Notes under the pieces: generated by a model
The model's database searches: none
Seen by the model: the letters and a program-made list of their open reading frames with translations, nothing else
What the model was told of the DNA's origin: nothing
In this document: positions 17,173-39,700 of the stretch, in pieces
Layout of the letters: each line of letters opens with the position of its first letter
Numbering within the stretch: position 1 is the first letter of the stretch
Position numbers and translations under genes: made by a program
Source: an uncultured Nitrososphaerota archaeon
GTDB lineage: Archaea; Thermoproteota; Nitrososphaeria; Nitrososphaerales; Gagatemarchaeaceae
Length of the DNA: 64,000 bases
NCBI GenBank assembly: GCA_963703285.1
Contig: OY969807.1
Location: forward strand, 32,001-96,000
Direction: 5' to 3'

Positions 17173-17241
17173 ATGTCTGAGGAAGAGTTTCTCAGAGACA
17201 AGTGGGCTACTTCTGCCGCGCTCCTAGTACCCGCTCGATAA
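17173..17241 (+). pseudogene. orphan N-terminal stub of rps11 (MSEEEFLRDKWA plus 10 read-through residues)
   Basis: ATG 6 nt after the rps4 stop; 8 of 11 residues identical to the N-terminus of rps11 at 18121-18153. Confidence 0.85.
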
Positions 17242-17926
17242 CTAATCTGCCGTAGCCGAAATCTATTGCTAGTTTGACTATCGGTACCCGGTCGGTGTTG
17301 TAACGGTAGCGAATCATTGATTGCTCTTCTTCGGTCACGCAAATCCTTGTCGCGGCGTGAGCTTTTTCGAGATTTAGGGCAACCTTCAGTCTCAGCCCCT
17401 CAGACCGTGTGTATGGAATCTTCGCTGTCTTTAGTATCCCCACCTTATTTCCAATTTCTACTTCGTGGTTCACACAGCGTACTAGTTCATCCCCCGTAGT
17501 TCTGTCTTCTAGATAATCAACTATGGCTTGCAGTTCCGCTCTTTTCTTATACACGTACGGCAGCATTTCTTTCGATGCGAGGAGTACTCCGTCGAGGTTG
17601 GGAATTCTAATCTGCCATGCCGATAACCGATGTTCGAATTTCTTTTTCGTGAGACCACCTGCCCGAATGCCCTTCAGACTTAGAAAATTTCCCACTGCGA
17701 TTAGCTGCCTGTCCCAATTGTCAGTGAATCCGATCTTGACATTGATTGTGAATTGGCCAAGTTTCTCTTCCACATTTCCGTCCCCATCGAAAAAACCGGC
17801 TACGACGGGCCAGCCTTTGTATCCATCATCCAATATCCCACAGGTTCTTGAATAAAGGTCCGGCGGTATCGGAAAATTCATTGGCGCGTTTTTCCGCGGC
17901 CTCCCAGGCCTCGGTTTGCTCTCCAT
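17207..17926 (-). CDS. single-motif LAGLIDADG homing endonuclease with N-terminal AT-hook-like and C-terminal HTH-like segments
   Basis: VVAGFFDGDG motif; PRPGRPRK at the N-terminus; PIVKLAIDFGYGRLVIERVL at the C-terminus; atypical codon usage. Confidence 0.85.
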   Translation of the reverse strand: MESKPRPGRPRKNAPMNFPIPPDLYSRTCGILDDGYKGWPVVAGFFDGDGNVEEKLGQFTINVKIGFTDNWDRQLIAVGNFLSLKGIRAGGLTKKKFEHRLSAWQIRIPNLDGVLLASKEMLPYVYKKRAELQAIVDYLEDRTTGDELVRCVNHEVEIGNKVGILKTAKIPYTRSEGLRLKVALNLEKAHAATRICVTEEEQSMIRYRYNTDRVPIVKLAIDFGYGRLVIERVLGARQK

Positions 17927-18153
17927 GATTGTGTAGGATGACCTTACTTATCATCACCACCCTCAGGAGTATCTCACACGACTAGGGAAAGCGATAACCA
18001 GGCAGTCTTCGGTCGCCGAAGCGGTCTTGAGTGTAGGTCATAGGCAGTTCGAGTATCGGGTGACTTGGGGAAGTTTCTTAAGGAGGTGGTAGACGGGCTC
18101 AACGATTCAAAGACTTGAGTTCTGACGAGGAGCTGTTGCGGGATCGTTGGGCT
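17209..18153. mobile_element. free-standing homing endonuclease cassette inserted in the rps11 5' end, carrying a new promoter and replacement rps11 N-terminus
   Basis: AT-richer segment bounded by TGGGCT at 17203-17208 and 18148-18153; removing it reconstitutes an in-operon rps11. Confidence 0.8.
18070..18083 (+). promoter_or_regulatory. putative BRE/TATA for the rebuilt rps11
   Basis: GAAG-TTTCTTAAG about 33-45 nt upstream of the TTG at 18115. Confidence 0.5.
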
Positions 18154-18522
18154 GTCGTGCACATCTACAGCTCCTACAACAACACCATAGTCCACATCAC
18201 CGACCTGACTGGTGCGGAGACCATCTCCTTCTCCTCGGGCGGGAGGCACGTGAAGGCCGACAGGTTCGAGGCCTCGCCCTACGCGGCGATGCGGTCGGCG
18301 TCCGCGGCGTCCGACGTCGCCAAGGGGAAGGGAATCACCGCCGTCCACATCAAGGTGAGAGCGGTTGGTGGCACGGGTCCGAGGACACCAGGTCCCGGCG
18401 CTCAGGCGGCGATCAGGGCCATCGCCCGCTCTGGCTTCAGGATAGGACGAATAGAGGACGCCACCCCCATACCTCACGACACGACCAGGAAGAAGGGTGG
18501 GCGCAGAGGAAGAAGGGCGTAA
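18115..18522 (+). CDS. rps11: 30S ribosomal protein S11 (uS11)
   Basis: [44 protein letters not shown] and GGRRGRR motifs. Confidence 0.97.
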
Positions 18523-26365: not shown

Positions 26366-27400
26366 ATGGTCGACTACGCGCCGATGCTCGACGAGATGAA
26401 GCGGTTCAAGGCGAGGGTCGACCGCCTCGTCCTGGACGAGATACTCCCGGGCTCCCACGCCATACCAGAGGTCGAGCTCCTCTACAGGATGATGAGGGAC
26501 TACCCCGAGCGGGGCGGAAAGGGCATGAGGCCCTACATCTGCGTCACCAGCTGCAGGGCCTTCGGCGGGTCGGAGGAGGACGTCCTGCTCACCGCCTCCT
26601 GCCTGGAGCTCTTCCAGAACTGGATACTCATCCACGACGACATCGAGGACGGGTCCGAGCTCAGGCGCGGGTTGCCGGCGCTCCACAAGAAGTACGACTG
26701 GACCCTCGCCCTCAACGCGGGCGACGCTCTCCACGGGCGGATGTGGCAGGCTCTCCTCGGCAACAAGGAGAGGCTGGGCGGGGAGAGGACGCTCGAGATA
26801 ATGCGAGAGTTCGGGCGAATGATCAACGAGACAACCGAGGGGCAGCAGATGGAGCTCAGCTGGGTCGTCAACAGGACCTGGAAGCTCTCTGAGCACGACT
26901 ACTTCCGGATGTGCACGAAGAAGACCTCCTGGTATACGGCGATAAGCCCCATGCGGCTCGGCGGCCTGGCGGCCGGCGCCGACCGAGACGCCCTAGAGAC
27001 CCTGATAGGCGCCGGGACGAACCTGGGCGTCGCCTTCCAGATACACGACGACGTCCTCAACCTCTCCGCCGGCGCCAAGTACGGCAAGCAGTACGCTGAC
27101 GACCTCCTCGAGGGCAAGCGCACCCTCATCCTGATCCGCCTGCTGGAGGTGTGCAGCCGTGAGGAGAGGCAGAGAGTGGTCGAGCTCTTCGGCCTGTCCA
27201 GGGAGGAGCGCAAGCCGAGGCTCGACGAGCTGCTGGACTTGATAGACAAGTACAAGGTCCTGCCCTTCGCGAACGCGCGGGCCAACCAGCTCCTGGACGA
27301 CGCCCTCGCGACCCTCGGGAAGGTCCGCTGGCCGGGCGACGCGCAGGCGGTCCGGAGGCTCGAAGAGGTGGCGCGCTACTCTGTAGAGCGGGACTGGTAG
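26366..27400 (+). CDS. polyprenyl (geranylgeranyl) diphosphate synthase
   Basis: GGKGMRP, LIHDDIEDGSELRRG, GQQME and FQIHDDVL motifs. Confidence 0.93.
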   Translation: MVDYAPMLDEMKRFKARVDRLVLDEILPGSHAIPEVELLYRMMRDYPERGGKGMRPYICVTSCRAFGGSEEDVLLTASCLELFQNWILIHDDIEDGSELRRGLPALHKKYDWTLALNAGDALHGRMWQALLGNKERLGGERTLEIMREFGRMINETTEGQQMELSWVVNRTWKLSEHDYFRMCTKKTSWYTAISPMRLGGLAAGADRDALETLIGAGTNLGVAFQIHDDVLNLSAGAKYGKQYADDLLEGKRTLILIRLLEVCSREERQRVVELFGLSREERKPRLDELLDLIDKYKVLPFANARANQLLDDALATLGKVRWPGDAQAVRRLEEVARYSVERDW

Positions 27401-29121
27401 TGACCTTGTCCATCAGCGAGCAGGACCGTTCATCGATGGAGAAGTACGCGCTGCAGAACGCCGTACGGCACGGCGGGAGGGCGGAGACGGGCGCGGTCGT
27501 CTCGAAGGTCCTGGGGGACTCCGCCTCCCTGAGGTCGATCGCGAAGGACGTCGCCCGGGAGTCGGCGGAGGTCGTGGCGGCCGTCAACAAACTCACCCCC
27601 GAGCAGCAGGAGCGGGCGCTTCGGGAGAAGTACCCCGAGGCGCTGGAGGAGCGGAAGCAGGAGCAGAGGGTCGGGCTCCCCCCGCTGCAGGACGCGGTGA
27701 AGGGCGAGTTCGTCGTGAGGCTCCCCCCCGAGCCGTCCGGGTTCATGCACATCGGGCACGCCATGGCCGCCACCATAAACGACGTCTACAGGCAGATGTA
27801 CGACGGGAAGCTCTGGCTGAGGTTCGAGGACACCAACCCGAGGAAGGTGCAGGAGCGCTACTACGAGAGCTTCCGAAGGGGCTACTCCTGGCTTGGGATA
27901 AAGTGGGACCACGAGAAGAACGTCTCCAGCGACGTCGAGCTCATCTACGAGCACGTCCAGGACCTCATCGAGGCGGGGTCCGCCTACGCCTGCTCGTGCG
28001 CCCCGGACGTCATGAAGAAGATGAGGTTCGAGGGCGTCCCCTGCGAGCACCGGTCGAATAGCGTCGAGAGGAACGTCGCCATCTGGGACGAGATGCTCGC
28101 GAGGAAGCACAAGGAGGGGACCTACGTCATCAGGCTCAAGGGGGACCTCTCCAGCCTCGACTACTCCCTCCGCGACCCGAACATCGCCAGGATAATCGAC
28201 TACCCGCACCCCCTCACCGGCGACAAGTACGTCGTCTGGCCGACCTACGACTTCGAGGTCGTCGTCGAGGACCAGGTCTGCTCCGTCACACACGTCCTCC
28301 GGTCCTCCGAGTTCCACGTCGGACTGCAGGAGCTCGTCAGGAAGCTCCTCGGGTTCCCCGAGGTCAGCGTGATCCAGTTCTCGAGATACAACTTCAAGGG
28401 GACGCCGGTCCACAAGAGGTACCTCAGGCCGCTCGTCGAGCAGAAGCTCGTCTCGGGGTGGGACGACCCGAGGATGCCCACCATCGAGGGGGTGATCCGC
28501 CGCGGGATACTCCCCGAGTCCATACGCCAGTTCACGATGGACGTGGGGTACAGCAAGTCGGAGCACACCTTCGACTGGTCGCTCCTATTCGCCGTGAACA
28601 GGAAGCTTCTCGACCCCGTCACAAGGAGGTACTACTTCGTCCCCGACCCCGTCAGGCTCTCGATAGACAACGCGCCCATCAAGGACACCACGATCCCGTA
28701 CCATCCCCTCGAGAACCTCGGTTCGCGTACGGTGAGGTCCGCGGGCGAGTTCTACATCCCGGCGAGCGACCTCGCCGCGGCCGCCCCGGGCCAGGTCATC
28801 AGGCTGATGGAGCTCTTCAACTTCCAGCTCGTCTTCAAGAGCGCCGACCGCGCTCTCGGGCGCTTCACCGACGACGACCTGGTCCAGGGCAGCAAGAAGG
28901 TCCAGTGGGTCGTGGCCGGCCGTTCGCTCGAGATCGAGGTCCTGGAGCCCTCTGAGCTCTACAGGGACGACGGGACCTTCAACCCCGACAGCCTGAAGAC
29001 ACGGAGGGGCTTCGTTGAGGAGTCCTTCAAGGACCTGAAGGTGGGCGACATCGTCCAGTTCCCGCGCTATGGGTTCGTAAGGCTGGACGCGCCGGGACGC
29101 TGCGTGCTCGCACACGGCTAG
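27400..29121 (+). CDS. gltX: glutamate--tRNA ligase
   Basis: PPEPSGFMHIGH, RFEDTNP and GWDDPRMPT motifs. Confidence 0.96.
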   Translation: MTLSISEQDRSSMEKYALQNAVRHGGRAETGAVVSKVLGDSASLRSIAKDVARESAEVVAAVNKLTPEQQERALREKYPEALEERKQEQRVGLPPLQDAVKGEFVVRLPPEPSGFMHIGHAMAATINDVYRQMYDGKLWLRFEDTNPRKVQERYYESFRRGYSWLGIKWDHEKNVSSDVELIYEHVQDLIEAGSAYACSCAPDVMKKMRFEGVPCEHRSNSVERNVAIWDEMLARKHKEGTYVIRLKGDLSSLDYSLRDPNIARIIDYPHPLTGDKYVVWPTYDFEVVVEDQVCSVTHVLRSSEFHVGLQELVRKLLGFPEVSVIQFSRYNFKGTPVHKRYLRPLVEQKLVSGWDDPRMPTIEGVIRRGILPESIRQFTMDVGYSKSEHTFDWSLLFAVNRKLLDPVTRRYYFVPDPVRLSIDNAPIKDTTIPYHPLENLGSRTVRSAGEFYIPASDLAAAAPGQVIRLMELFNFQLVFKSADRALGRFTDDDLVQGSKKVQWVVAGRSLEIEVLEPSELYRDDGTFNPDSLKTRRGFVEESFKDLKVGDIVQFPRYGFVRLDAPGRCVLAHG

Positions 29122-29286
29122 GACGCGGTCGGACGGGCGGTCGGCCGCAATCCCGGGTCACCGAGAGCAAGCCGAGATTGCCCGTGGAGCCCCCAAAGCG
29201 GCCTCAGGGCATCCTCGACTGGAGCGCGCTACCGACCAAGCTTATATGCACCCCGAAAACTGAGCCTGTGGGCGATATAGTTCGAG

Positions 29287-29667
29287 ATGACCCCGAAAGC
29301 CTATTTCGTAAAGTTCGAGACACCCAAGGAGGTATCGGAGGCTGCGTACGAGGTCCTGAGGCAGGCTTCCCGCTCCGGGAAGGTCCGGAAGGGGACCAAC
29401 GAGACGACCAAGGCGATAGAGCGCGGCCTGGCCAAGCTCGTCGTCATAGCCGAGGACACCGAGCCCCCCGAGGTCGTCGCGCACCTTCCTCTGCTATGCG
29501 ATGAGAGGAAGATCCCCTACGTCTTCGTCCCCTCCAAGGACCAGATCGGGCCGGCGATCGGCATAGACGTCCCGACGGCGGCCGCGGCCGTCATCGAAGC
29601 CGGTGAGGGGCAGCAGATCCTCGACCAGGTCACGCAGGAGCTGACCCGGGTGAGGTCCAAGCAATGA
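29287..29667 (+). CDS. rpl7ae: 50S ribosomal protein L7Ae
   Basis: [13 protein letters not shown] and [13 protein letters not shown] motifs. Confidence 0.97.
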
Positions 29668-29879
29668 GCAAGCAGGCCGCCGAGGACGTCACCCCCGCCG
29701 AGGTCGTCCAGATAGTCGGGCGGACCGGGGTCGCCGGGGAGATAACTCAGGTCAGGGTCAAGATCCTCGAGGGCAAGGAGAAGGGCAGGATCCTCACCAG
29801 GAACGTCAAGGGGCCCATAAGGCTGGCAGATGTGCTATTATTGCGAGATACGGAGCGCGAAGCTCGCAAGATAAAATAG
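29664..29879 (+). CDS. rps28e: 30S ribosomal protein S28e
   Basis: [23 protein letters not shown] and EREAR motifs; last ~17 codons are AT-rich. Confidence 0.96.
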
Positions 29880-29908
29880 AAATCTTTCATCATTTTGATG
29901 CTATTATC

Positions 29909-31186
29909 CTAAGACTTTCGTGTTGCCGCTTTTTTTCTGGATATACTCTCGCTTGGCATTGTCACCTTTCTGCTCCATCTTTGGACAGCCTCGAAGGAAA
30001 TGAGCAGGCCCATTGTTTCCGCAACTTCCTCGACAATGGCAGGAACGGATAGTCCTCGCCTCGTCAACTCGGCGATTCGATCTCGAATGTTCGCGGGCAG
30101 ACGTTCTTCCCGTCTGAGACGTCTGGTCGTGGCTAGAAGCTTCAGCTTCTGATAGCGGACCGTGTTCAGATGTGGCGCTAGAATTGGCGTCTGGAACGAC
30201 TTTACAGCTTGACTCTTTACGAGGTCGATTGCTTCTCTGCAGCGAAACGCCTTGAGACCGAAAGTCGCCAGGAAGCGAATCATAAGTTCCCAGTTTGGCC
30301 CAAGCCAGAGCTCCATCGATTGGGAGGCAACGTTGGGAGACCCATCTGACTCCGCAAGCCCCTGGAGAAGTCCAACTCTGAAGTCCTCAGGCGCAGACAG
30401 AATCCATTCCGATTTGATCGGGTGGTAAGTCGTGACTTCGCCGTCGCGCAATCCTAGCCCGACGCCGTAGAGCCAATCGATTAGCGGCGAGGATTGCGAA
30501 ATCCATTCGAAGAAGCCATTCGGTTTGCTCTCGGGCTTTGACAGGTCTGCCGCCCTATGCATTCGTAACCCCACACTCCACGCACAGACGCAAGTGAAAT
30601 CCCCGAGGGCGAGGTTTGTATCGTACTTCATGCTGAGCACCAGCCCAATATGTCTGTGGCCTGACTTCTGTTTGGATTTTGAACCATCGCCAATAATCAT
30701 TCCGTACAGAAAGCCGAGTAGGTATCTCCGGCTAAACGTCCTGTAATCAAGGGCCAAGGGCCTGAGTTGAAAGAGCACTTCCTCGACGTCGCTCCATGTC
30801 CTAACTTGGAGAGGAACTTGTACAAACTGACCGATGGGGATGGCGTACCCATGCGAACACTCAGTGTTAAGCCAGACTAGTCCCTGTCTCGCCATCCCCA
30901 ATTCAATGAATGCCTTAAGGTAATGCCCCAGCTTCGGCATTGTCTCGAGTAAGGACCATGAACGCACGGTTGTGTTGGAGGCCTTCAGACCCCAGCCGAT
31001 TGAGAATGGATTCTCGCCCCGGCATTTCGCCTGCATCACCCTCGCGAATTGGTGGTAACCAGTTACGTCTCTTTCTAGGGGTTCGCACCCTTTCCAGAAG
31101 CATTTCGTGAAATCTAGGCTGTCGCCATGCTCTGAGATATACGACCGGAGCGCATCCTTCCAGGGTTCCTCAGGCTGTCCTTCCAC
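29909..31186 (-). CDS. double-motif LAGLIDADG homing endonuclease with C-terminal HTH-like segment
   Basis: FLYGMIIGDGS and LLQGLAESDGS motifs; atypical codon usage; convergent with rps28e. Confidence 0.85.
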   Translation of the reverse strand: MEGQPEEPWKDALRSYISEHGDSLDFTKCFWKGCEPLERDVTGYHQFARVMQAKCRGENPFSIGWGLKASNTTVRSWSLLETMPKLGHYLKAFIELGMARQGLVWLNTECSHGYAIPIGQFVQVPLQVRTWSDVEEVLFQLRPLALDYRTFSRRYLLGFLYGMIIGDGSKSKQKSGHRHIGLVLSMKYDTNLALGDFTCVCAWSVGLRMHRAADLSKPESKPNGFFEWISQSSPLIDWLYGVGLGLRDGEVTTYHPIKSEWILSAPEDFRVGLLQGLAESDGSPNVASQSMELWLGPNWELMIRFLATFGLKAFRCREAIDLVKSQAVKSFQTPILAPHLNTVRYQKLKLLATTRRLRREERLPANIRDRIAELTRRGLSVPAIVEEVAETMGLLISFEAVQRWSRKVTMPSESISRKKAATRKS

Positions 31187-31270
31187 GCAATCCTATTCCA
31201 CGGTGCATTTAAGCGGCGAGGATCCAATTCGAACTAACTGTAATCGAACTGCGTCCTTCTCGAAAATGCA

Positions 31271-32701
31271 CTACCTCCGGCCCGGTGGTCTTCCCTTGAC
31301 GGTGTAACCTGCCGTCAGTCCTATGATTAGCAGCACCGCCATCGCCGCGTATGCCCACGATGGTGTCGCCGAAGCTGCGGGGGTCGCCGTTGAGGTTATC
31401 GTCTGTGTAGTCACGGTCGTCGGTTGCACGCTCGACGTGGATGCGGGTAGTGTCACAGTTACGGTCGGACCCGTAACCGTTATCGTGGGCCCGGTCGCGA
31501 TCTGAGTAATTGTCGCTGTCATGGATTCGGAAACCGTGGCCGTCACGGTCTGGGTAACAGTCACGAGGTTGGTAGTAGTCGTGGTCGTAGTGACCGTGGA
31601 CGCCGAGGGCTGCTGGCTAGAAGACGCCGTCTGCGTGGGCGACTGGGTCGCGCTCGACGAGGACGTGACGGCTGAGGACGAGGTGAAGGTGGACGACTGG
31701 CTGGGGTTGGACGCGGTCACCGACGGGTTGAGGGCGTCGAGAAGGTTGTAGGCGCTGCAGTCGTCGTGCATGCACGGCAAGCCGAATATCGACTCGATAA
31801 CCGTCGGGATTGAGTAGTGGCTCGCCAGATTGTGGTCGATTATCCCATTGGGCCCGTAGGGGGCGAGCATGATCATCGGGACCCGGTACCCGAACTGGCC
31901 CGGCGGCGTAACGTGGTCGTACCAACCGCCGGAGTCGTCCCAGGTGAGAAGCACCACCGTCGATTTCAGGTAGCCTGAGGAGTTGAGGTCGTCGATGACC
32001 CCGTGTATCCACGCCTGGCCTAGGGTCAGGTTAGCCGGCGGCTCGTCGCTCACCTCGTCGCTGTCTGGCATCACAAAAGACACGTCGGGTAGGGTGTGCG
32101 TCTTGATATCGGAGATGAGTGTCGTCGTGTCTTGCTCGTTGTTAAGCCAGCTGGGAGATTGCGTGAAGAACGACAGGGGGCACTCGTTGTAGTTGCAGTT
32201 GAAGTAGTCCCAGGACACGCCCGCCGCTGTCATCTCGTCGAGTATCGTCGTGTTGGAGCGCCAGGGGAAGGCTTGCCCGGAGGTGTTCCAGTCGGTCACG
32301 AAGCCGAGGGTCGAGCCCGCTATCATCGCCATGCGGTTGGGCAGGCTGGCCAGCGGCGAGACCGTGAAGTAGTTGTCGAAGAGGATGCTCTCGTTCGCTA
32401 GGGCGCAGTAGTACGGGATGTCGCTGCAGGTGAAGTAGCCGTAGTTCTCGGGATGACCCACGAACCCCCCGAGGCTCTGATTCTCGTAGACCTCATCGGT
32501 CGTATCGTGGAAGATGGGCGCTGTCGAACCCTGCAGCCCGTTGGCGCCGGGGTAGAAGCCGAAGAAGTTGTCGAAGGTATGGTTCTCCTGGACGAAGATT
32601 ACCACGTGCTGGATCGCGGGTGCAGGCTGGGCCGTCGGGAGCTCCGGGATGGCGAACAGGAGCAGGAACGCCACGGCGGCAGCGAGGATGAGGTTCCTCA
32701 T
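31271..32701 (-). CDS. secreted phosphoesterase (phospholipase C / acid phosphatase family) with Ser/Thr-rich stalk and C-terminal membrane anchor
   Basis: Signal peptide, IQHVVIFVQENHTFDNFFG, PNR, TWDDSGGWYDHVTPP and GYRVP motifs; C-terminal TM helix. Confidence 0.9.
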   Translation of the reverse strand: MRNLILAAAVAFLLLFAIPELPTAQPAPAIQHVVIFVQENHTFDNFFGFYPGANGLQGSTAPIFHDTTDEVYENQSLGGFVGHPENYGYFTCSDIPYYCALANESILFDNYFTVSPLASLPNRMAMIAGSTLGFVTDWNTSGQAFPWRSNTTILDEMTAAGVSWDYFNCNYNECPLSFFTQSPSWLNNEQDTTTLISDIKTHTLPDVSFVMPDSDEVSDEPPANLTLGQAWIHGVIDDLNSSGYLKSTVVLLTWDDSGGWYDHVTPPGQFGYRVPMIMLAPYGPNGIIDHNLASHYSIPTVIESIFGLPCMHDDCSAYNLLDALNPSVTASNPSQSSTFTSSSAVTSSSSATQSPTQTASSSQQPSASTVTTTTTTTNLVTVTQTVTATVSESMTATITQIATGPTITVTGPTVTVTLPASTSSVQPTTVTTQTITSTATPAASATPSWAYAAMAVLLIIGLTAGYTVKGRPPGRR

Positions 32702-33177
32702 CAATGTCCCGCCACCCAAAGACAGTCGCGTCCGGGGAGCGTCTGCTCGGTCGTCATATTCGTGCAGCCCGGTGGTCCTACTTGGCACGATTGCGTGCAA
32801 GGTACGGGCCGATTACCTTCAGGGGCCAATATCGAAGCGATGAAACTTCGTCTCCAGGGGGGCCTACCGCGGTCACAGCATTCCATCGCTACCCACCAAG
32901 TGCGGACGACCTTGGTCGAGTATATAATGCCGGCCTGCCATTCTCATCTTTGAGACGCACTTCTATCAGGTTTATTCTAACGGCGTTAATTTTCTCTCCA
33001 ACGGTGTTGACCCCAGGCTCACGTCAAGCCGGGCGGATGTCGTGGCCTTGGCCGGCGGCCCATCACTGGTTGGAATGGATTGCCGTCGCGAACTTCACTC
33101 CGGCTCGTTCTTTCACATCGTTTGCTTTATATGCAGATGCTGCGGGCCTCCGCCGAATTACTCGTCAGGCGATTGTC

Positions 33178-33354
33178 TTGTACACACCCAAGAAATGCTT
33201 CTTCTGCGGCAAGGACGTCCACCTCGGCGAGGGGATAATGCTCGTCTTGAACGACGGGTCGACCAAGAGCTACTGCTCCTCCAAGTGCAAGGTGAACGAC
33301 CGCAAGCTGAAGCGGGACCCACGCAAGTTCAAGTGGGCGAGGGAAAACAGGTAA
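33178..33354 (+). CDS. rpl24e: 50S ribosomal protein L24e
   Basis: CFFCG...G.GIM.V.NDG...YCSSKC...KRDPRKFKWA; TTG start at 33178. Confidence 0.95.
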   Translation: MYTPKKCFFCGKDVHLGEGIMLVLNDGSTKSYCSSKCKVNDRKLKRDPRKFKWARENR

Positions 33355-33767
33355 TGTCCCTCCCGCCCGTGGAGAGGACGCTCGTAGTCGTGAAGCCTGA
33401 CGCCGTGGGGCGGGGCCTCGTCGGCGAGATCATTGGGAGGTTCGAGAGGCGCGGCCTGAAGCCCGTAGAGATCAGGATGCAGACGGTGACCAAGGCCAAG
33501 GCCACTCAGTTCTACATCGTGCACAAGGACAAGCCGTTCTTCGGGGACCTCGTATCCTTCATCAGCAGCGGGCCCAGCGTCGGCGTCGTGCTCGAGGGTA
33601 GGGACGCGATCGCGCTCGTCCGCCGGGCGATAGGCTCCACCAAGAGCTGGGAGGCCGCCTCGGGGACTATAAGGGGAGACTACGCGACAGGGCTCCTGGA
33701 CAACGCCATCCACGCCTCCGACTCGAAGGAATCCTTCGACTGGGAGAGCAAGACCTACTTCTCGTAA
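33354..33767 (+). CDS. ndk: nucleoside-diphosphate kinase
   Basis: ERTLVVVKPDAV, GTIRGD and NAIHASDS motifs. Confidence 0.96.
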   Translation: MSLPPVERTLVVVKPDAVGRGLVGEIIGRFERRGLKPVEIRMQTVTKAKATQFYIVHKDKPFFGDLVSFISSGPSVGVVLEGRDAIALVRRAIGSTKSWEAASGTIRGDYATGLLDNAIHASDSKESFDWESKTYFS

Positions 33768-36767: not shown

Positions 36768-39700
36768 ATGGCCCAGACGATGTCCACGGTCCCGACGATG
36801 CGCATCCCCAAGCAGCCGGAGTGCAACATAGGCAGCGCAGGCCACGTGGACTCCGGGAAGTGTCAAAGAATCGACCAGTATGTCCTGCTCGAAGGCGTTC
36901 CTGTCACGGGGTCTCAGATTCTCCAGAAAGCGAAGTCGAGGGGTGTCTTGCTCGGGCGGATTGATGGTGGAGAGGTCTACGAGTTCGATGGAAGCAACGT
37001 AGTCTGCGTGGACGACAGATTCGAACCTGTGACCGCTGGCTCGAAGCTCTTCGTACAAGACTACAGCGGTCCCATGTATACCGTCATAGGTAAAAGTGGA
37101 AGATCAATCTGCATAACGCCAGAACACCCACTGCTCGTCAACAGAATGGGAAATCTCCAATGGATGAAAGCCAAGGATATACGCGAAGGCGATTACGCCG
37201 CGTTCCTTAGCCGCGTTCCCTTGGGGGAATCCATAACTCTTCCCGATGCCTTACCATCACTGAGAGAACGCTACGACGTGCTGACCTGGGAAGACTATAG
37301 TGAGTTGAGGTCAGCGACTTCGGACTTCACAGAGTTCGCGACCCTGCCCCAGAACAAGTTCGAAAAGATGAGGCTGCTGACCGGTCTCTCGGCATCTGGT
37401 CTCTCCAGGAAAGCAGGCATAAGTCGGGAAGCCTACTATAGAGTTCGTAGAGGAAAGACCATGCGCGCCCTCATAGGCGAGAAGGTGCGGCGGGCGTTTG
37501 CGAATTCAACTCTCGTTCCACTCTCTCCGCAGGAATTCCTCGTCGAGAGAAGCAGAGGGCACGGGAGGAGTGTGTCGAGGCTCGTGGATGTGGGGCAAGT
37601 CGATGGCGACATCGTAAAGTGGTTTGCGTTCGTCTGGGCCGAAGGTACGAGTCGGTCGTCCTTTGTTGGGGTCACGCAGACAGTTCAACGCAGGATGCTA
37701 GAGGAGTTCCTCAGGGTTACGAAGGAAAAGATGGGTCAGGAGATCGCGGGCTACGAAGACGGGAACTTCAGAATCCACAGCACAGCCTTCGTCGATTACC
37801 TTCGCGCCAGATTCGACTACGCTCCCGGCAACGAGTCCGTGTGTGGGATAGCCGATTGGGTCTGCAAGCTTCCTAGGAGTCTCAAGGCGACATTCCTCAG
37901 GTGGTTCCTCACCCTCGATGGCGAATTCGATGACAAAGGCGTCATATCCGTCACGCAGCTGAACGACAGAAATGTCGTCATAATCTCCTACCTCCTTCAC
38001 TCGTTTGGCATAGTCCCGCGCTTCTCCATCAAGAGAAGCCCGACCAAAGGCGGCATGAAGCTGTACCCGAGGCTGTCCGTTTCCGGTCGAGAGAACCTCA
38101 GGCTCTTCGCGGAGCTCATCGGGTTTGAGGATTCTCGCATACAGGGAAGATTGCTTGGGTACCTCTCCAAAATCAAGAAAGAAAGCAAAGAGACGGATCT
38201 TAGCATCCCCATCAACATCGAGTCTATTCGTCTGCTATTCAGGAGTTGCGGGATCCAGCGAGAGGCATTCGACCGAAACTCGACTATACCACAAATGAAG
38301 GGGTCTGCTTGGTACAAGGCCTACGAAGGCGCCGTAAGATCAGGCAGGATTTCAAGGAGAAAGCTCTCCCTCGTGGTGGCAGCCATAGATGAGCACCTGA
38401 AGTCGACCGAGAGGTCCTTGTCTGTGCTCAGGGCAGAAGGAAACTCTGCGCGGTATCACATGGCGCTCATGGGTGCCTCGATTGAATCTGTCGCGAGCGA
38501 ACTCGGAACTACACAAAAGGTGCTGAGACGCATTCTGCGGAGGGGGTCCGAGAGCGAGCTGGCACCCATCGTCAAGTATCTCAGGGCGGAGACGCGGGGG
38601 ATTCTTCATTACGCCGCTGGCTCCCTAGAGCAATTGCGTCTGCTTGCTTCTTCGCCTCTGGAATTCGACAGAATCGTCTCCGTGCAGACCGAGGAGTACA
38701 GCGGTCTAGTCTACGACCTCAGCGTTCCCGAGTACGCTAACTTCGTTGCTGGCAAGGGAGCGACGGTCTGCCACAACACATCAATTGTAGCGAGCATAAC
38801 CGGCGTGTGGGCGAGTGCTCACAGCGAGGAGCTGAAGAGGGGCATCACCATTAAGGTGGGGTACGCGGACGCGGCATTCTACAAATGCGCGCACACGCCC
38901 CCTCCAGAGGCGTTCTCGACCTCCCCTGTCTGTCCGGTATGCGGCCAGGAGACACAGCTGCTCAGGGCCGTCAGCTTTGTCGACGCGCCGGGCCACGAGA
39001 GCCTGATGACGAACATGCTAGCGGGGGCCGCGCTCATGGACGGCGCCTTCCTCGTGATAGCGGCGAACGAGCCCGTCCCGATGCCCCAGACAAGGGAGCA
39101 TATGCTCGCCCTCCAGATGCTCGGAATGAAGAAGATGGTTGTGGTACAGAACAAGATTGACAGGGTAGACGCCGAGGGGGCAAGGAAGAACTACGAGGCG
39201 ATCAAGAGTTTTCTCGCCAACACCATCGCGGCCGATGCCCCTGTGATCCCCGTCTCGGCTCAGCACGGCATCAACATCGACGCCCTGATACAGGCGTTCG
39301 AGGAGAACATCCCCACACCGGCAAGGGATCCGTCGGCGGTGTCGCAGATGTACGTGCTGAGGTCGTTCGACGTAAACAAGCCGGGATCGGAGATTCGCTC
39401 GCTCGTGGGCGGGGTGCTGGGCGGAAGTCTAGTCAGGGGAGAGCTGAAGGTGGGCGAGGAGATCGAGATATCTCCGGGGCTTCCGGACGAGAGGGGGAAG
39501 TACGCCCCCATCCTCACGAAGATAGCGAGCCTCGGGACCGGCGCTGGGATGGCCGATAAGGTCGGCCCCGGCGGTCTGATATCCCTCGGAACATATCTCG
39601 ACCCCGCGCTTACCAAGGGTGACCTGATGGTCGGGTCGCTCGTCGGCAGACCCGGGACGCTCCCTGCTCCCAAGACCCACTTCACGGTCGAGCTCCAGCT

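Follow-up and report, generated by a model that had tools for sequence, protein, structure and literature searches.

The ribosomal protein gene rps28e of an uncultured soil Nitrososphaerota archaeon ends in a synonymous, A+T-shifted stretch of 17 codons (the tail), and we propose that this tail was carried in by HEG-A, a convergent 425-aa open reading frame (ORF) in the gap between rps28e and rpl24e that appears to be a free-standing homing endonuclease gene (HEG) of the LAGLIDADG type, spreading by intronless homing. To this reading as a whole we assign a probability of roughly 60%. Both genes lie in a 64,000-nucleotide (nt) stretch of DNA, here called the window, from a genome that is available as a single contig of 2.25 Mb with 60.6% G+C. 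Across positions 29830-31250 the G+C content drops locally from about 0.65 to 0.38-0.57, and HEG-A has a foreign base composition (G+C 0.53; 0.60 at third codon positions, GC3) compared with L7Ae (0.64 and 0.87) and with the neighbouring genes (GC3 0.87-0.94).

Composition of the rps28e tail

In rps28e the GC3 drops from 0.93 in codons 1-54 (the head) to 0.41 in the last 17 codons, while the protein sequence stays normal, as an initial annotation of the window had claimed when it described the 3' end of the gene as recoded. The codons quoted in support of that claim, GGG CCC ATA AGG CTG followed by the tail GCA GAT GTG CTA TTA TTG CGA GAT ACG GAG CGC GAA GCT CGC AAG ATA AAA TAG, are found letter for letter in the window, and the profile proposed as a check gives GC3 values of 1.0, 0.9, 0.8, 1.0, 1.0, 0.5, 0.5 and 0.0 for successive 10-codon blocks. 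The stop codon of the convergent gene is likewise where it had been reported, except that it lies 29 nt past the rps28e stop and not 30.

Against the genome background the drop is rare, though not unique. Stretches of 17 codons with a GC3 of at most 7/17 account for 0.3% of the 295,348 such stretches taken from 829 ORFs with GC3 ≥0.8, and a C-terminal drop (tail minus body) of at least 0.5 occurs in 0.59% (10 of 1707) of the ORFs of at least 150 aa in the same genome. Ordinary local variation in codon use beside an inserted gene could be argued from these ten ORFs and from the mere 17 codons of the tail, but it was already disfavoured and we give it next to no weight, as the shift is associated with occupancy throughout the family, is seen in a trio of close relatives (G312, G343 and G194, see below), and is linked to the nuclease lineage.

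Identity of the 425-aa ORF

No Pfam family matched the 425-aa ORF at E ≤0.01. Its LAGLIDADG_3 score of 15.4 bits is below the curated cut-off of 22.5, and even at E ≤10 a LAGLIDADG match was obtained for just three of 12 members of the HEG-A family. When the PDB was searched by sequence, the protein gave one chance match (E 1.4) and a 12-sequence profile none. The predicted fold, on the other hand, is informative: an AlphaFold2 model based on a 12-sequence orthologue alignment has a mean predicted local distance difference test (pLDDT) score of 86 and a predicted template modelling (TM) score of 0.84, and Foldseek returned 15 PDB matches at E ≤0.001. The top matches, at probability 1.00, were PI-SceI, the TliVMA intein endonuclease, WhiA and I-DmoI; I-Tsp061I was also matched, and the TM score normalised to I-DmoI was 0.56-0.66. 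In the model two alpha-beta-beta-alpha-beta-beta-alpha domains are predicted to pack via two LAGLIDADG helices. The double-LAGLIDADG identity given in the initial annotation is thus upheld by the predicted fold but not by Pfam at its threshold.

The two motifs read ...GMIIGDGS and ...GLAESDGS, with ends (G-D-G/A and E-S-D-G-S) that are invariant in the 12 sequences. G166, D167, E279, S280, D281, G282 and S283 are conserved in 12/12 aligned homologues, so that an acidic residue appears to close each LAGLIDADG helix throughout. By analogy with I-CreI and I-DmoI, we take D167 and D281 to be the catalytic acidic positions. The two-motif core is flanked by an N-terminal helical part of ~140 residues and a C-terminal part of ~85 residues, both resembling a helix-turn-helix (HTH), and weak matches to HTH_23 were seen in 8/12 members. 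The ratio of non-synonymous to synonymous substitution rates (dN/dS) was 0.18 and 0.23 in two close orthologue pairs.

HEG-A fills an intergenic gap as an ORF of its own, encoded on the other strand from rps28e and rpl24e, which flank it. A group I intron or another RNA family was considered and rejected, since a search of Rfam at E ≤1 across 29000-33600 gave no match; being a separate opposite-strand ORF in a region free of such matches, HEG-A is not an intron or intein gene. We have little doubt that the 425-aa ORF is a LAGLIDADG HEG.

Database searches at E ≤1e-5 returned 124 homologous proteins, with source names pointing to Nitrososphaerota/Thaumarchaeota. Among the 120 of 124 matches listed, the name, where one is given, is 'hypothetical protein', with a single 'transposase-like protein'. 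Elsewhere in the window's genome, a 184-aa frame (G000:C1:1137102-1137581, L002) matches nuclease residues ~250-408 with 24% identity (E 8.5e-14), and judged by its sequence is probably a fragment of a related gene. The same genome holds 14 Pfam LAGLIDADG_3 matches above the cut-off: seven in frames of 929-1680 aa, which are likely inteins, and seven in frames of 185-332 aa, which look free-standing. Examples are found at 1311864, 1869811, 221164, 1594329, 344687, 859671 and 371129 (G000:C1), and one of the long-frame matches is inside the window (~37884-38123).

Distribution and mobility of HEG-A

To follow the element among relatives, 401 genomes of the order were surveyed, comprising 96 of the window's family, the window's own genome and 304 from elsewhere in the order. 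HEG-A family matches were found in 51 of the 401, namely in 50 of the 96 family genomes and in the window's genome, and in none of the 304 outside the family. High-scoring orthologues share this rps28e/rpl24e site, and the orientation in it, in at least five genera (g1, g2, g20, g21 and g23), and family-wide HEG-A is present at 29 of 91 loci.

Within the window's genus 16 of 19 loci carry HEG-A, 12 of them with an intact gene. The remaining four copies are decayed: G002 has two in-frame stops, G009 is frameshifted, and G013 and G016 retain the last ~80 codons. Three loci lack HEG-A, one with a 642-nt gap (G007) and two, G019 and G022, with rps28e and rpl24e 9 nt apart and nested among carriers in a tree of the flanking genes. 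Presence, decay and absence hence occur at one homologous site among close relatives, and the flank tree, which covers 86 family genomes, shows a minimum of 18 switches in occupancy. The nuclease and flank trees, the latter resting on ~640 columns, also conflict. G015 and G012 are sisters by flank (support 98/91), a pairing that the nuclease tree rejects (approximately unbiased test, p-AU 9e-7), and the flank tree rejects the carriers of the H1 nuclease clade as one clade (p-AU 0.02), the groups in both tests having been named only after the trees had been seen. The pattern of invasion, decay and loss is as expected of a HEG. Four soil-metagenome read runs yielded short contigs only and no joints.

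A second nuclease family, HEG-B, occupies the same gap in the same orientation in seven genomes (G041, G197, G320, G177, G160, G194 and G338). It is a different ORF of ~250-290 aa, with motifs of the LAGLAYGDG and GLSDAEGS type, and a profile-profile comparison revealed no similarity between HEG-A and HEG-B. Its match to Pfam LAGLIDADG_3 is sub-threshold (E 0.0099), and a structure prediction from a 3-sequence alignment reached a mean pLDDT of 34. In the ESM Atlas, HEG-B falls among LAGLIDADG_3 clusters, the ten best family-bearing feature matches all belonging to that family or clan, and a structural match there has a TM score of 0.77 over 214 residues. These sequence features point to a LAGLIDADG-like protein that appears unrelated to HEG-A.

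The findings on HEG-A could alternatively be read as those of a domesticated LAGLIDADG protein, similar to WhiA with its C-terminal HTH and now serving the host, for instance in regulation close to ribosomal protein genes, with the patchy distribution due to loss. WhiA is indeed among the best fold matches (ranks 6, 7, 17 and 21 in the Foldseek list), HTH_23 matches recur, the protein is under purifying selection, and its position is conserved over the whole family. However, both presumed catalytic acidic positions are invariant in HEG-A, and to our knowledge WhiA lacks the catalytic acidic residues. The pseudogenes, remnants and clean absences in close relatives, the tree conflict, the unrelated LAGLIDADG gene at the same site in seven genomes and the foreign base composition speak against domestication as well, and we consider it very unlikely.

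Association of the tail with the nuclease gene

The initial annotation had further supposed that the 3' end of rps28e arrived with the element. Comparison of the tails across the family agrees with this: the mean difference in GC3 between tail and head is -0.21 in HEG-A loci (n=29) and -0.12 in HEG-B loci (n=7), versus +0.045 in unoccupied loci (n=52, of which 16 have no rpl24e within the 2.1-2.6 kb fetched and had the gap checked by tblastn with HEG-A and HEG-B only). The shift between occupied and unoccupied loci is significant in a Mann-Whitney test uncorrected for kinship (p 6e-8). Among 18 path-independent pairs, drawn on branches of the best tree whatever their support, the occupied member had the lower value in 13, the higher in four and an equal value in one (sign test p 0.025, Wilcoxon p 0.028).

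Nucleotide divergence gives the same picture. The ratio of tail to head divergence is 1.64 in the window's genus, where the tail protein is almost invariant, versus 1.07 in 34 unoccupied g20 genomes. For close pairs (head differences ≤14/135; the pairs are non-independent) the ratio is 1.33 for two empty loci (46 pairs), 3.8 for HEG-A against empty (5), 3.2 for HEG-A against HEG-B (3), 11 for HEG-B against empty (1) and 2.2 for two HEG-A loci (8), i.e. tail divergence exceeds that of the head in close relatives only with a nuclease gene. It also follows the nuclease lineage. The head of the window's rps28e is 86-90% identical at the nucleotide level to those of four congeners regardless of nuclease lineage; its tail is 86% identical to that of G009, which carries the same nuclease lineage, versus 67-73% to those of G002, G014 and G001, which carry another. 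In partial Mantel tests, tail distance correlated with nuclease distance given the head (r 0.35, p 0.002), whereas head distance given the tail did not do so significantly (r 0.16, p 0.09).

The clearest view is offered by three close relatives, of which G312 is empty, G343 carries HEG-A and G194 carries HEG-B. In nt 1-162 of rps28e both G194 and G343 differ from G312 at 5/162 positions, but in nt 163-213 the numbers rise to 17/51 for G194 and 9/51 for G343 (Fisher p 2.9e-6 and 0.006, respectively). The differences set in at similar places, as a run from nt 171 in G194 and with first tail differences at nt 165 and 175 in G343; in the window's genus the GC3 drop begins around residue 57, matching this onset. 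The tails of G194 and G312 encode identical amino acids, and G194 is closer to the other HEG-B carriers in the tail (distance 0.13-0.17) than in the head (0.22-0.24). This comparison points to probable co-conversion of the tail with the nuclease gene, which would leave the host gene with a foreign, in-phase C-terminal segment.

It had been stated that an A+T-rich tail in element-free relatives would contradict this interpretation. The outcome is mixed and mostly favourable. While the mean of the 52 unoccupied loci is positive, nine of them have a difference of -0.1 or lower; and of the element-free alleles in the window's genus, G022 has a G+C-rich tail (0.76 versus 0.80 in the head) but G019 an A+T-shifted one (0.53 versus 0.81). 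The latter can be explained by secondary loss, as G019 and G022 are nested among carriers.

Several observations nevertheless weigh against our reading. They include the limits given above for the 18-pair test, the groups in the tree tests and the gap check in unoccupied loci. When independent pairs were restricted to well-supported branches, six remained and the result, of low power, was not significant. Tail distance tracks head distance nearly as well as it tracks nuclease distance (partial r 0.33, p 0.008). Some carriers have G+C-rich tails (G011 and G018, 0.76; G016, a remnant, 0.82), and the A+T-shifted tail of the element-free G019 has the rare codons of carriers (TTG TTG CGA). The tail haplotype CTA TTR TTG CGA GAT accompanies three different nuclease lineages and occurs in each of the two species clades, which means that co-inheritance of tail and nuclease is not strict. 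Finally, G021 and G003 have near-identical nucleases and tails that differ at 7/17 codons by our own count, which argues against a strong nucleotide-level constraint on the tail. Tail and nuclease are linked, then, without being inseparable, as repeated conversion tracts of varying length combined with a gradual return to host codons would give. On balance we hold it to be probable, from the comparison of sequences, that the rps28e tail came with the element.

Proposed homing cycle and target

According to the reading we favour, HEG-A in the rps28e-rpl24e gap would be transcribed towards rps28e from its own TATA-type promoter, and its product would cut HEG-A-free alleles among related archaea. 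Repair of the break from the carrier allele would then copy the nuclease gene and whatever DNA separates it from the cut. As the nuclease gene ends 8-72 nt past the canonical end of rps28e in all 29 loci, the last ~17 codons would travel along as a synonymous version shifted towards A+T at third positions. The replaced sequence starts alike for two enzyme families and in two genera, which suggests a cut in or adjoining rps28e codons ~50-60; these would make a stable target because the peptide they encode is almost invariant. Carriers would have to differ at the target, with selection at the protein level allowing synonymous recoding only, and the recoded tail could in this way leave them uncleavable. 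Such cleavage resistance, which the initial annotation had put forward as an inference, is plausible to us at somewhat less than even odds.

A different account of the same data is that the tail is a passenger. Here the target would be the compact junction of the rps28e stop and the rpl24e start, split by the insertion, and a low-G+C donor tail would be carried along simply for being next to the break, with no role in immunity. Compact empty sites of 1-13 nt, found in the genus and outside the family, would provide a conserved 20-bp junction target, and the carriers with G+C-rich tails (G011, G018 and G016) would be expected. The effect on GC3 is -0.31 in the G+C-rich genus (n=16) versus -0.09 elsewhere (n=13), as a contrast in composition between donor and host gives, and the nuclease gene itself has a low GC3 for its surroundings. 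Yet the excess differences start at nt 165-171 in two genera and with two unrelated nuclease families, so that a fixed break inside rps28e fits better than variable resection; and most family members have a spacer of 90-220 nt and a promoter for rpl24e, so that a compact junction is not what an empty site usually looks like there. We regard passive hitch-hiking as unlikely, albeit worth keeping in mind.

Expression signals and change of the tail in place

An A/T box is found ~20-30 nt before the start of HEG-A in 12/12 intact homologues, read from the sequences, and in the window the box TTAAAT is a putative promoter that could give a leaderless or short-leader mRNA. At the other end of the gene, the tail end AAG ATA AAA TAG AAA gives four consecutive T when read on the nuclease strand. 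Oligo-T tracts terminate transcription in archaea, and the T-run in the rps28e tail may serve to end the convergent transcript of the nuclease gene. At least four T on the nuclease strand within rps28e codons 66-71 (plus 12 nt) are present in 19/29 HEG-A loci, 1/7 HEG-B loci and 2/52 unoccupied loci, and Lys69 is encoded by AAA in 16/29 HEG-A loci versus 8/52 unoccupied ones. The stop-to-stop distance between rps28e and HEG-A is -48 to +72 nt in all 29 loci. As proposed here, the A-rich final codons of the imported tail would double as an oligo-T terminator.

These signals could alternatively have been produced where they are, in an old, vertically inherited insertion whose neighbouring tail drifted or was selected towards A/T for terminators or antisense control; the T-runs, the Lys69 codon and the invariably short stop-to-stop distance are all in line with this. 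Such an explanation covers the last 3-5 codons only, and not the block CTA TTA TTG CGA GAT 30-45 nt further upstream. HEG-B tails, moreover, are replaced although only one of seven has the T-run. The 17/51 differences in the tail against 5/162 in the head are too many for change in place, HEG-B carriers with head distances of 0.20-0.26 have tail distances of only 0.13-0.21, and the nuclease and flank trees conflict. We therefore judge recoding in place to be improbable.

The canonical stop of rps28e is missing from 26 of 91 family loci, where the gene runs on for 18-25 hydrophobic codons (..LLAL.LGL..A..L..), a pattern conserved across genera (loci L006, L013, L015, L019, L020, L079 and L083, for instance). 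The extension is seen in 16/29 HEG-A loci, 8/52 unoccupied, 0/7 HEG-B and 2/3 unclassified loci, and two unoccupied genomes have it running to within 1-4 nt of rpl24e. In the corresponding region of the window (29877-29912) TAG is followed by 10 in-frame, mostly hydrophobic codons, which by our own reading of the spacer (29880-29908) then end in TAA. The membrane-helix-like tail predicted from the reading frame would be odd on a ribosomal protein.

The extension and the two nuclease families can be combined into a wider interpretation, in which the rps28e/rpl24e junction is a contested landing pad taken by at least two unrelated free-standing LAGLIDADG lineages, each homing with a portable recoded 3' cassette. 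The cassette would be the immunity determinant, in family A also the terminator, and in many A elements the stop would be replaced by the 18-25-codon hydrophobic extension. This is doubtful in our view; if true, it would mean that a selfish element both rewrites and physically extends a universal ribosomal protein.

Organization of the locus

The features of the locus are compiled in Table 1.

Table 1. Genes and sequence elements around rps28e in the window, and copies of HEG-B in other genomes.
Feature	Position	Strand	Remarks
GluRS	27400-29121	+	
rpl7ae	29287-29667	+	First gene upstream in the operon; Pfam Ribosomal_L7Ae E 7.6e-30; GC3 0.87, native composition
rps28e	29664-29879	+	71 aa; Pfam Ribosomal_S28e E 1.1e-30
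rps28e codons 1-54 (native head)	29664-29825	+	GC3 0.93
rps28e codons 55-71 and TAG stop (recoded tail)	29826-29879	+	GC3 0.41; amino acids conserved
A+T-rich spacer	29880-29908		29 nt, separates the convergent stop codons
HEG-A	29909-31186	-	Intact free-standing gene, 425 aa, predicted double LAGLIDADG; GTG start
TATA-like box TTAAAT (minus-strand reading)	31207-31212	-	~20-26 nt upstream of the HEG-A GTG start
Phosphoesterase-family gene	31271-32800	-	Pfam PF04185 E 4.9e-49; GC3 0.82
rpl24e TATA box TTTATATG	33126-33133	+	~45 nt upstream of the rpl24e start
rpl24e	33178-33354	+	TTG start; followed by ndk and aIF5B
HEG-B copies	L096:1608-2471, L085:1688-2494, L103:1042-1785, four further loci		One copy decayed

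rps28e and rpl24e are adjacent in other families of the order. Outside the family they are 1-13 nt apart, as they are in six unoccupied family genomes, and among 11 loci from outside the window's genus rpl24e lies within ~220 nt of rps28e in 10 and the 425-aa ORF is found in none. Most family members have a TATA box for rpl24e ~45-60 nt upstream of the gene, together with the spacer of 90-220 nt after rps28e, and this spacer could be the scar of an earlier occupancy. We considered whether the nuclease element had supplied the rpl24e promoter and rejected this: the TATA box is present in family loci with a spacer, occupied and unoccupied alike, and as it is identical in the unoccupied ones the promoter is not part of the element.

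Between HEG-A and rpl24e the window has a phosphoesterase gene whose product has a Ser/Thr-rich stalk or tail and ends in a hydrophobic stretch. Of the loci examined in the genus, only the window and three congeners, G001, G002 and G009 (loci L033, L036 and L038), have it in that position, and since its GC3 is host-like it looks like a separate occupant of the gap and not a component of the nuclease element. The gap is filled differently in other congeners, for example with a 375-aa repeat protein in G013, and this variety suggests that the gap is a general insertion hot spot.

Displaced gene ends and the rps11 locus

A displaced native 3' end of rps28e was sought on both sides of the insertion. 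Upstream of rpl24e, 32 loci showed none, the matches there consisting of the GGTGAT ribosome-binding site and spacer only; within 300 nt beyond the nuclease start 2/29 HEG-A loci gave p ≤0.05, as chance gives. In the window itself neither place gave a sign of a retained duplicate (p 0.20 past the nuclease start, z 0.9 ahead of rpl24e).

A related arrangement is seen at rps11 (17173-17926, 18115-18522), where a minus-strand ORF of 239 aa (17207-17926) lies between rps4 and rps11. This ORF has a G+C content of 0.49 and a ..GFFDGDGN.. motif, and no Pfam match at E ≤1. Directly 3' of the rps4 stop (17173-17210) there is an A+T-richer duplicate of the rps11 N-terminus of 12 codons, MSEEEFLRDKWA. 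The description of rps28e as the mirror image of the rps11 case is hence loosely true, with the difference that a duplicated 5' fragment survives at rps11 and no displaced 3' end at rps28e.

Comparison with known systems

Free-standing HEGs that cut a neighbouring conserved gene and bring a protected copy of its end are textbook matter in phage T4 and known from fungal mitochondria. Our literature search yielded no description of such genes in archaeal chromosomes or ribosomal protein operons and nothing joining a homing endonuclease with S28e. The papers found on LAGLIDADG and Thaumarchaeota did not appear, judged by title and the opening of the abstract, to treat such a case; for free-standing LAGLIDADG enzymes, archaea and ribosomal proteins together it returned organelles, phages and general reviews only. 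The present case differs from these in its LAGLIDADG enzyme, too divergent for Pfam, in the setting in a ribosomal protein operon of an archaeal chromosome, in the convergent orientation and in the lack of a displaced terminus.

If our reading is true, species of uncultured soil Nitrososphaerota are still exchanging DNA with one another by way of homologous repair, and rps28e, which is used as a phylogenetic marker, can have a 3' end whose history is foreign. The family would also represent a natural set of LAGLIDADG enzymes for which the empty alleles reveal candidate targets. With the trio G312, G343 and G194, and with two enzyme families competing for one site, the homing cycle is directly testable.

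The closest parallel is with the free-standing T4 endonucleases SegA-G and MobE, which are described as spreading by intronless homing (PMC2988022; also PMC2330249, PMC2790892). As in the T4 Seg and Mob systems, the nuclease gene sits in an intergenic gap between conserved genes and is patchy among relatives, the cut lies in the neighbouring conserved gene with the intervening DNA co-converted (here with a putative cut site), and the insertion must fit host transcription, promoters and antisense included (PMC2988022). The T4 enzymes described there, however, belong to the GIY-YIG or HNH type instead of LAGLIDADG, they reside in phage genomes brought together by co-infection and not in a cellular archaeal chromosome, and their cut sites are hundreds to thousands of bp away (PMC2988022), compared with the ~50-120 bp suggested here.

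Hybrid host genes have their counterpart in the mobile ORFs (mORFs) of fungal mitochondria, reported for atp6 of Allomyces and for atp6, atp9, cox2 and nad3 of Glomus (PMC3630166). There as here, an endonuclease ORF comes with a foreign in-phase C-terminal part that keeps the protein, with the nucleotides being far more divergent (PMC3630166). In the cases described, the native C-terminus is kept downstream as a duplicate, unlike in the 29 HEG-A loci and 32 rpl24e-upstream loci, where none was found; the mORFs are usually co-oriented and often fused in frame, whereas HEG-A is convergent; and they reside in organelle genomes, HEG-A in an archaeal chromosome.

In contrast to the archaeal enzymes of rRNA introns and inteins, HEG-A lies outside any intron or intein and has the additional HTH-like ends, and, unlike I-DmoI-type enzymes, it scores below the Pfam threshold and has no PDB sequence match. 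With I-DmoI, I-Tsp061I and PI-SceI-type domains, on the other hand, its model shares what appears to be a monomeric double-LAGLIDADG core with an acidic residue ending each motif helix.

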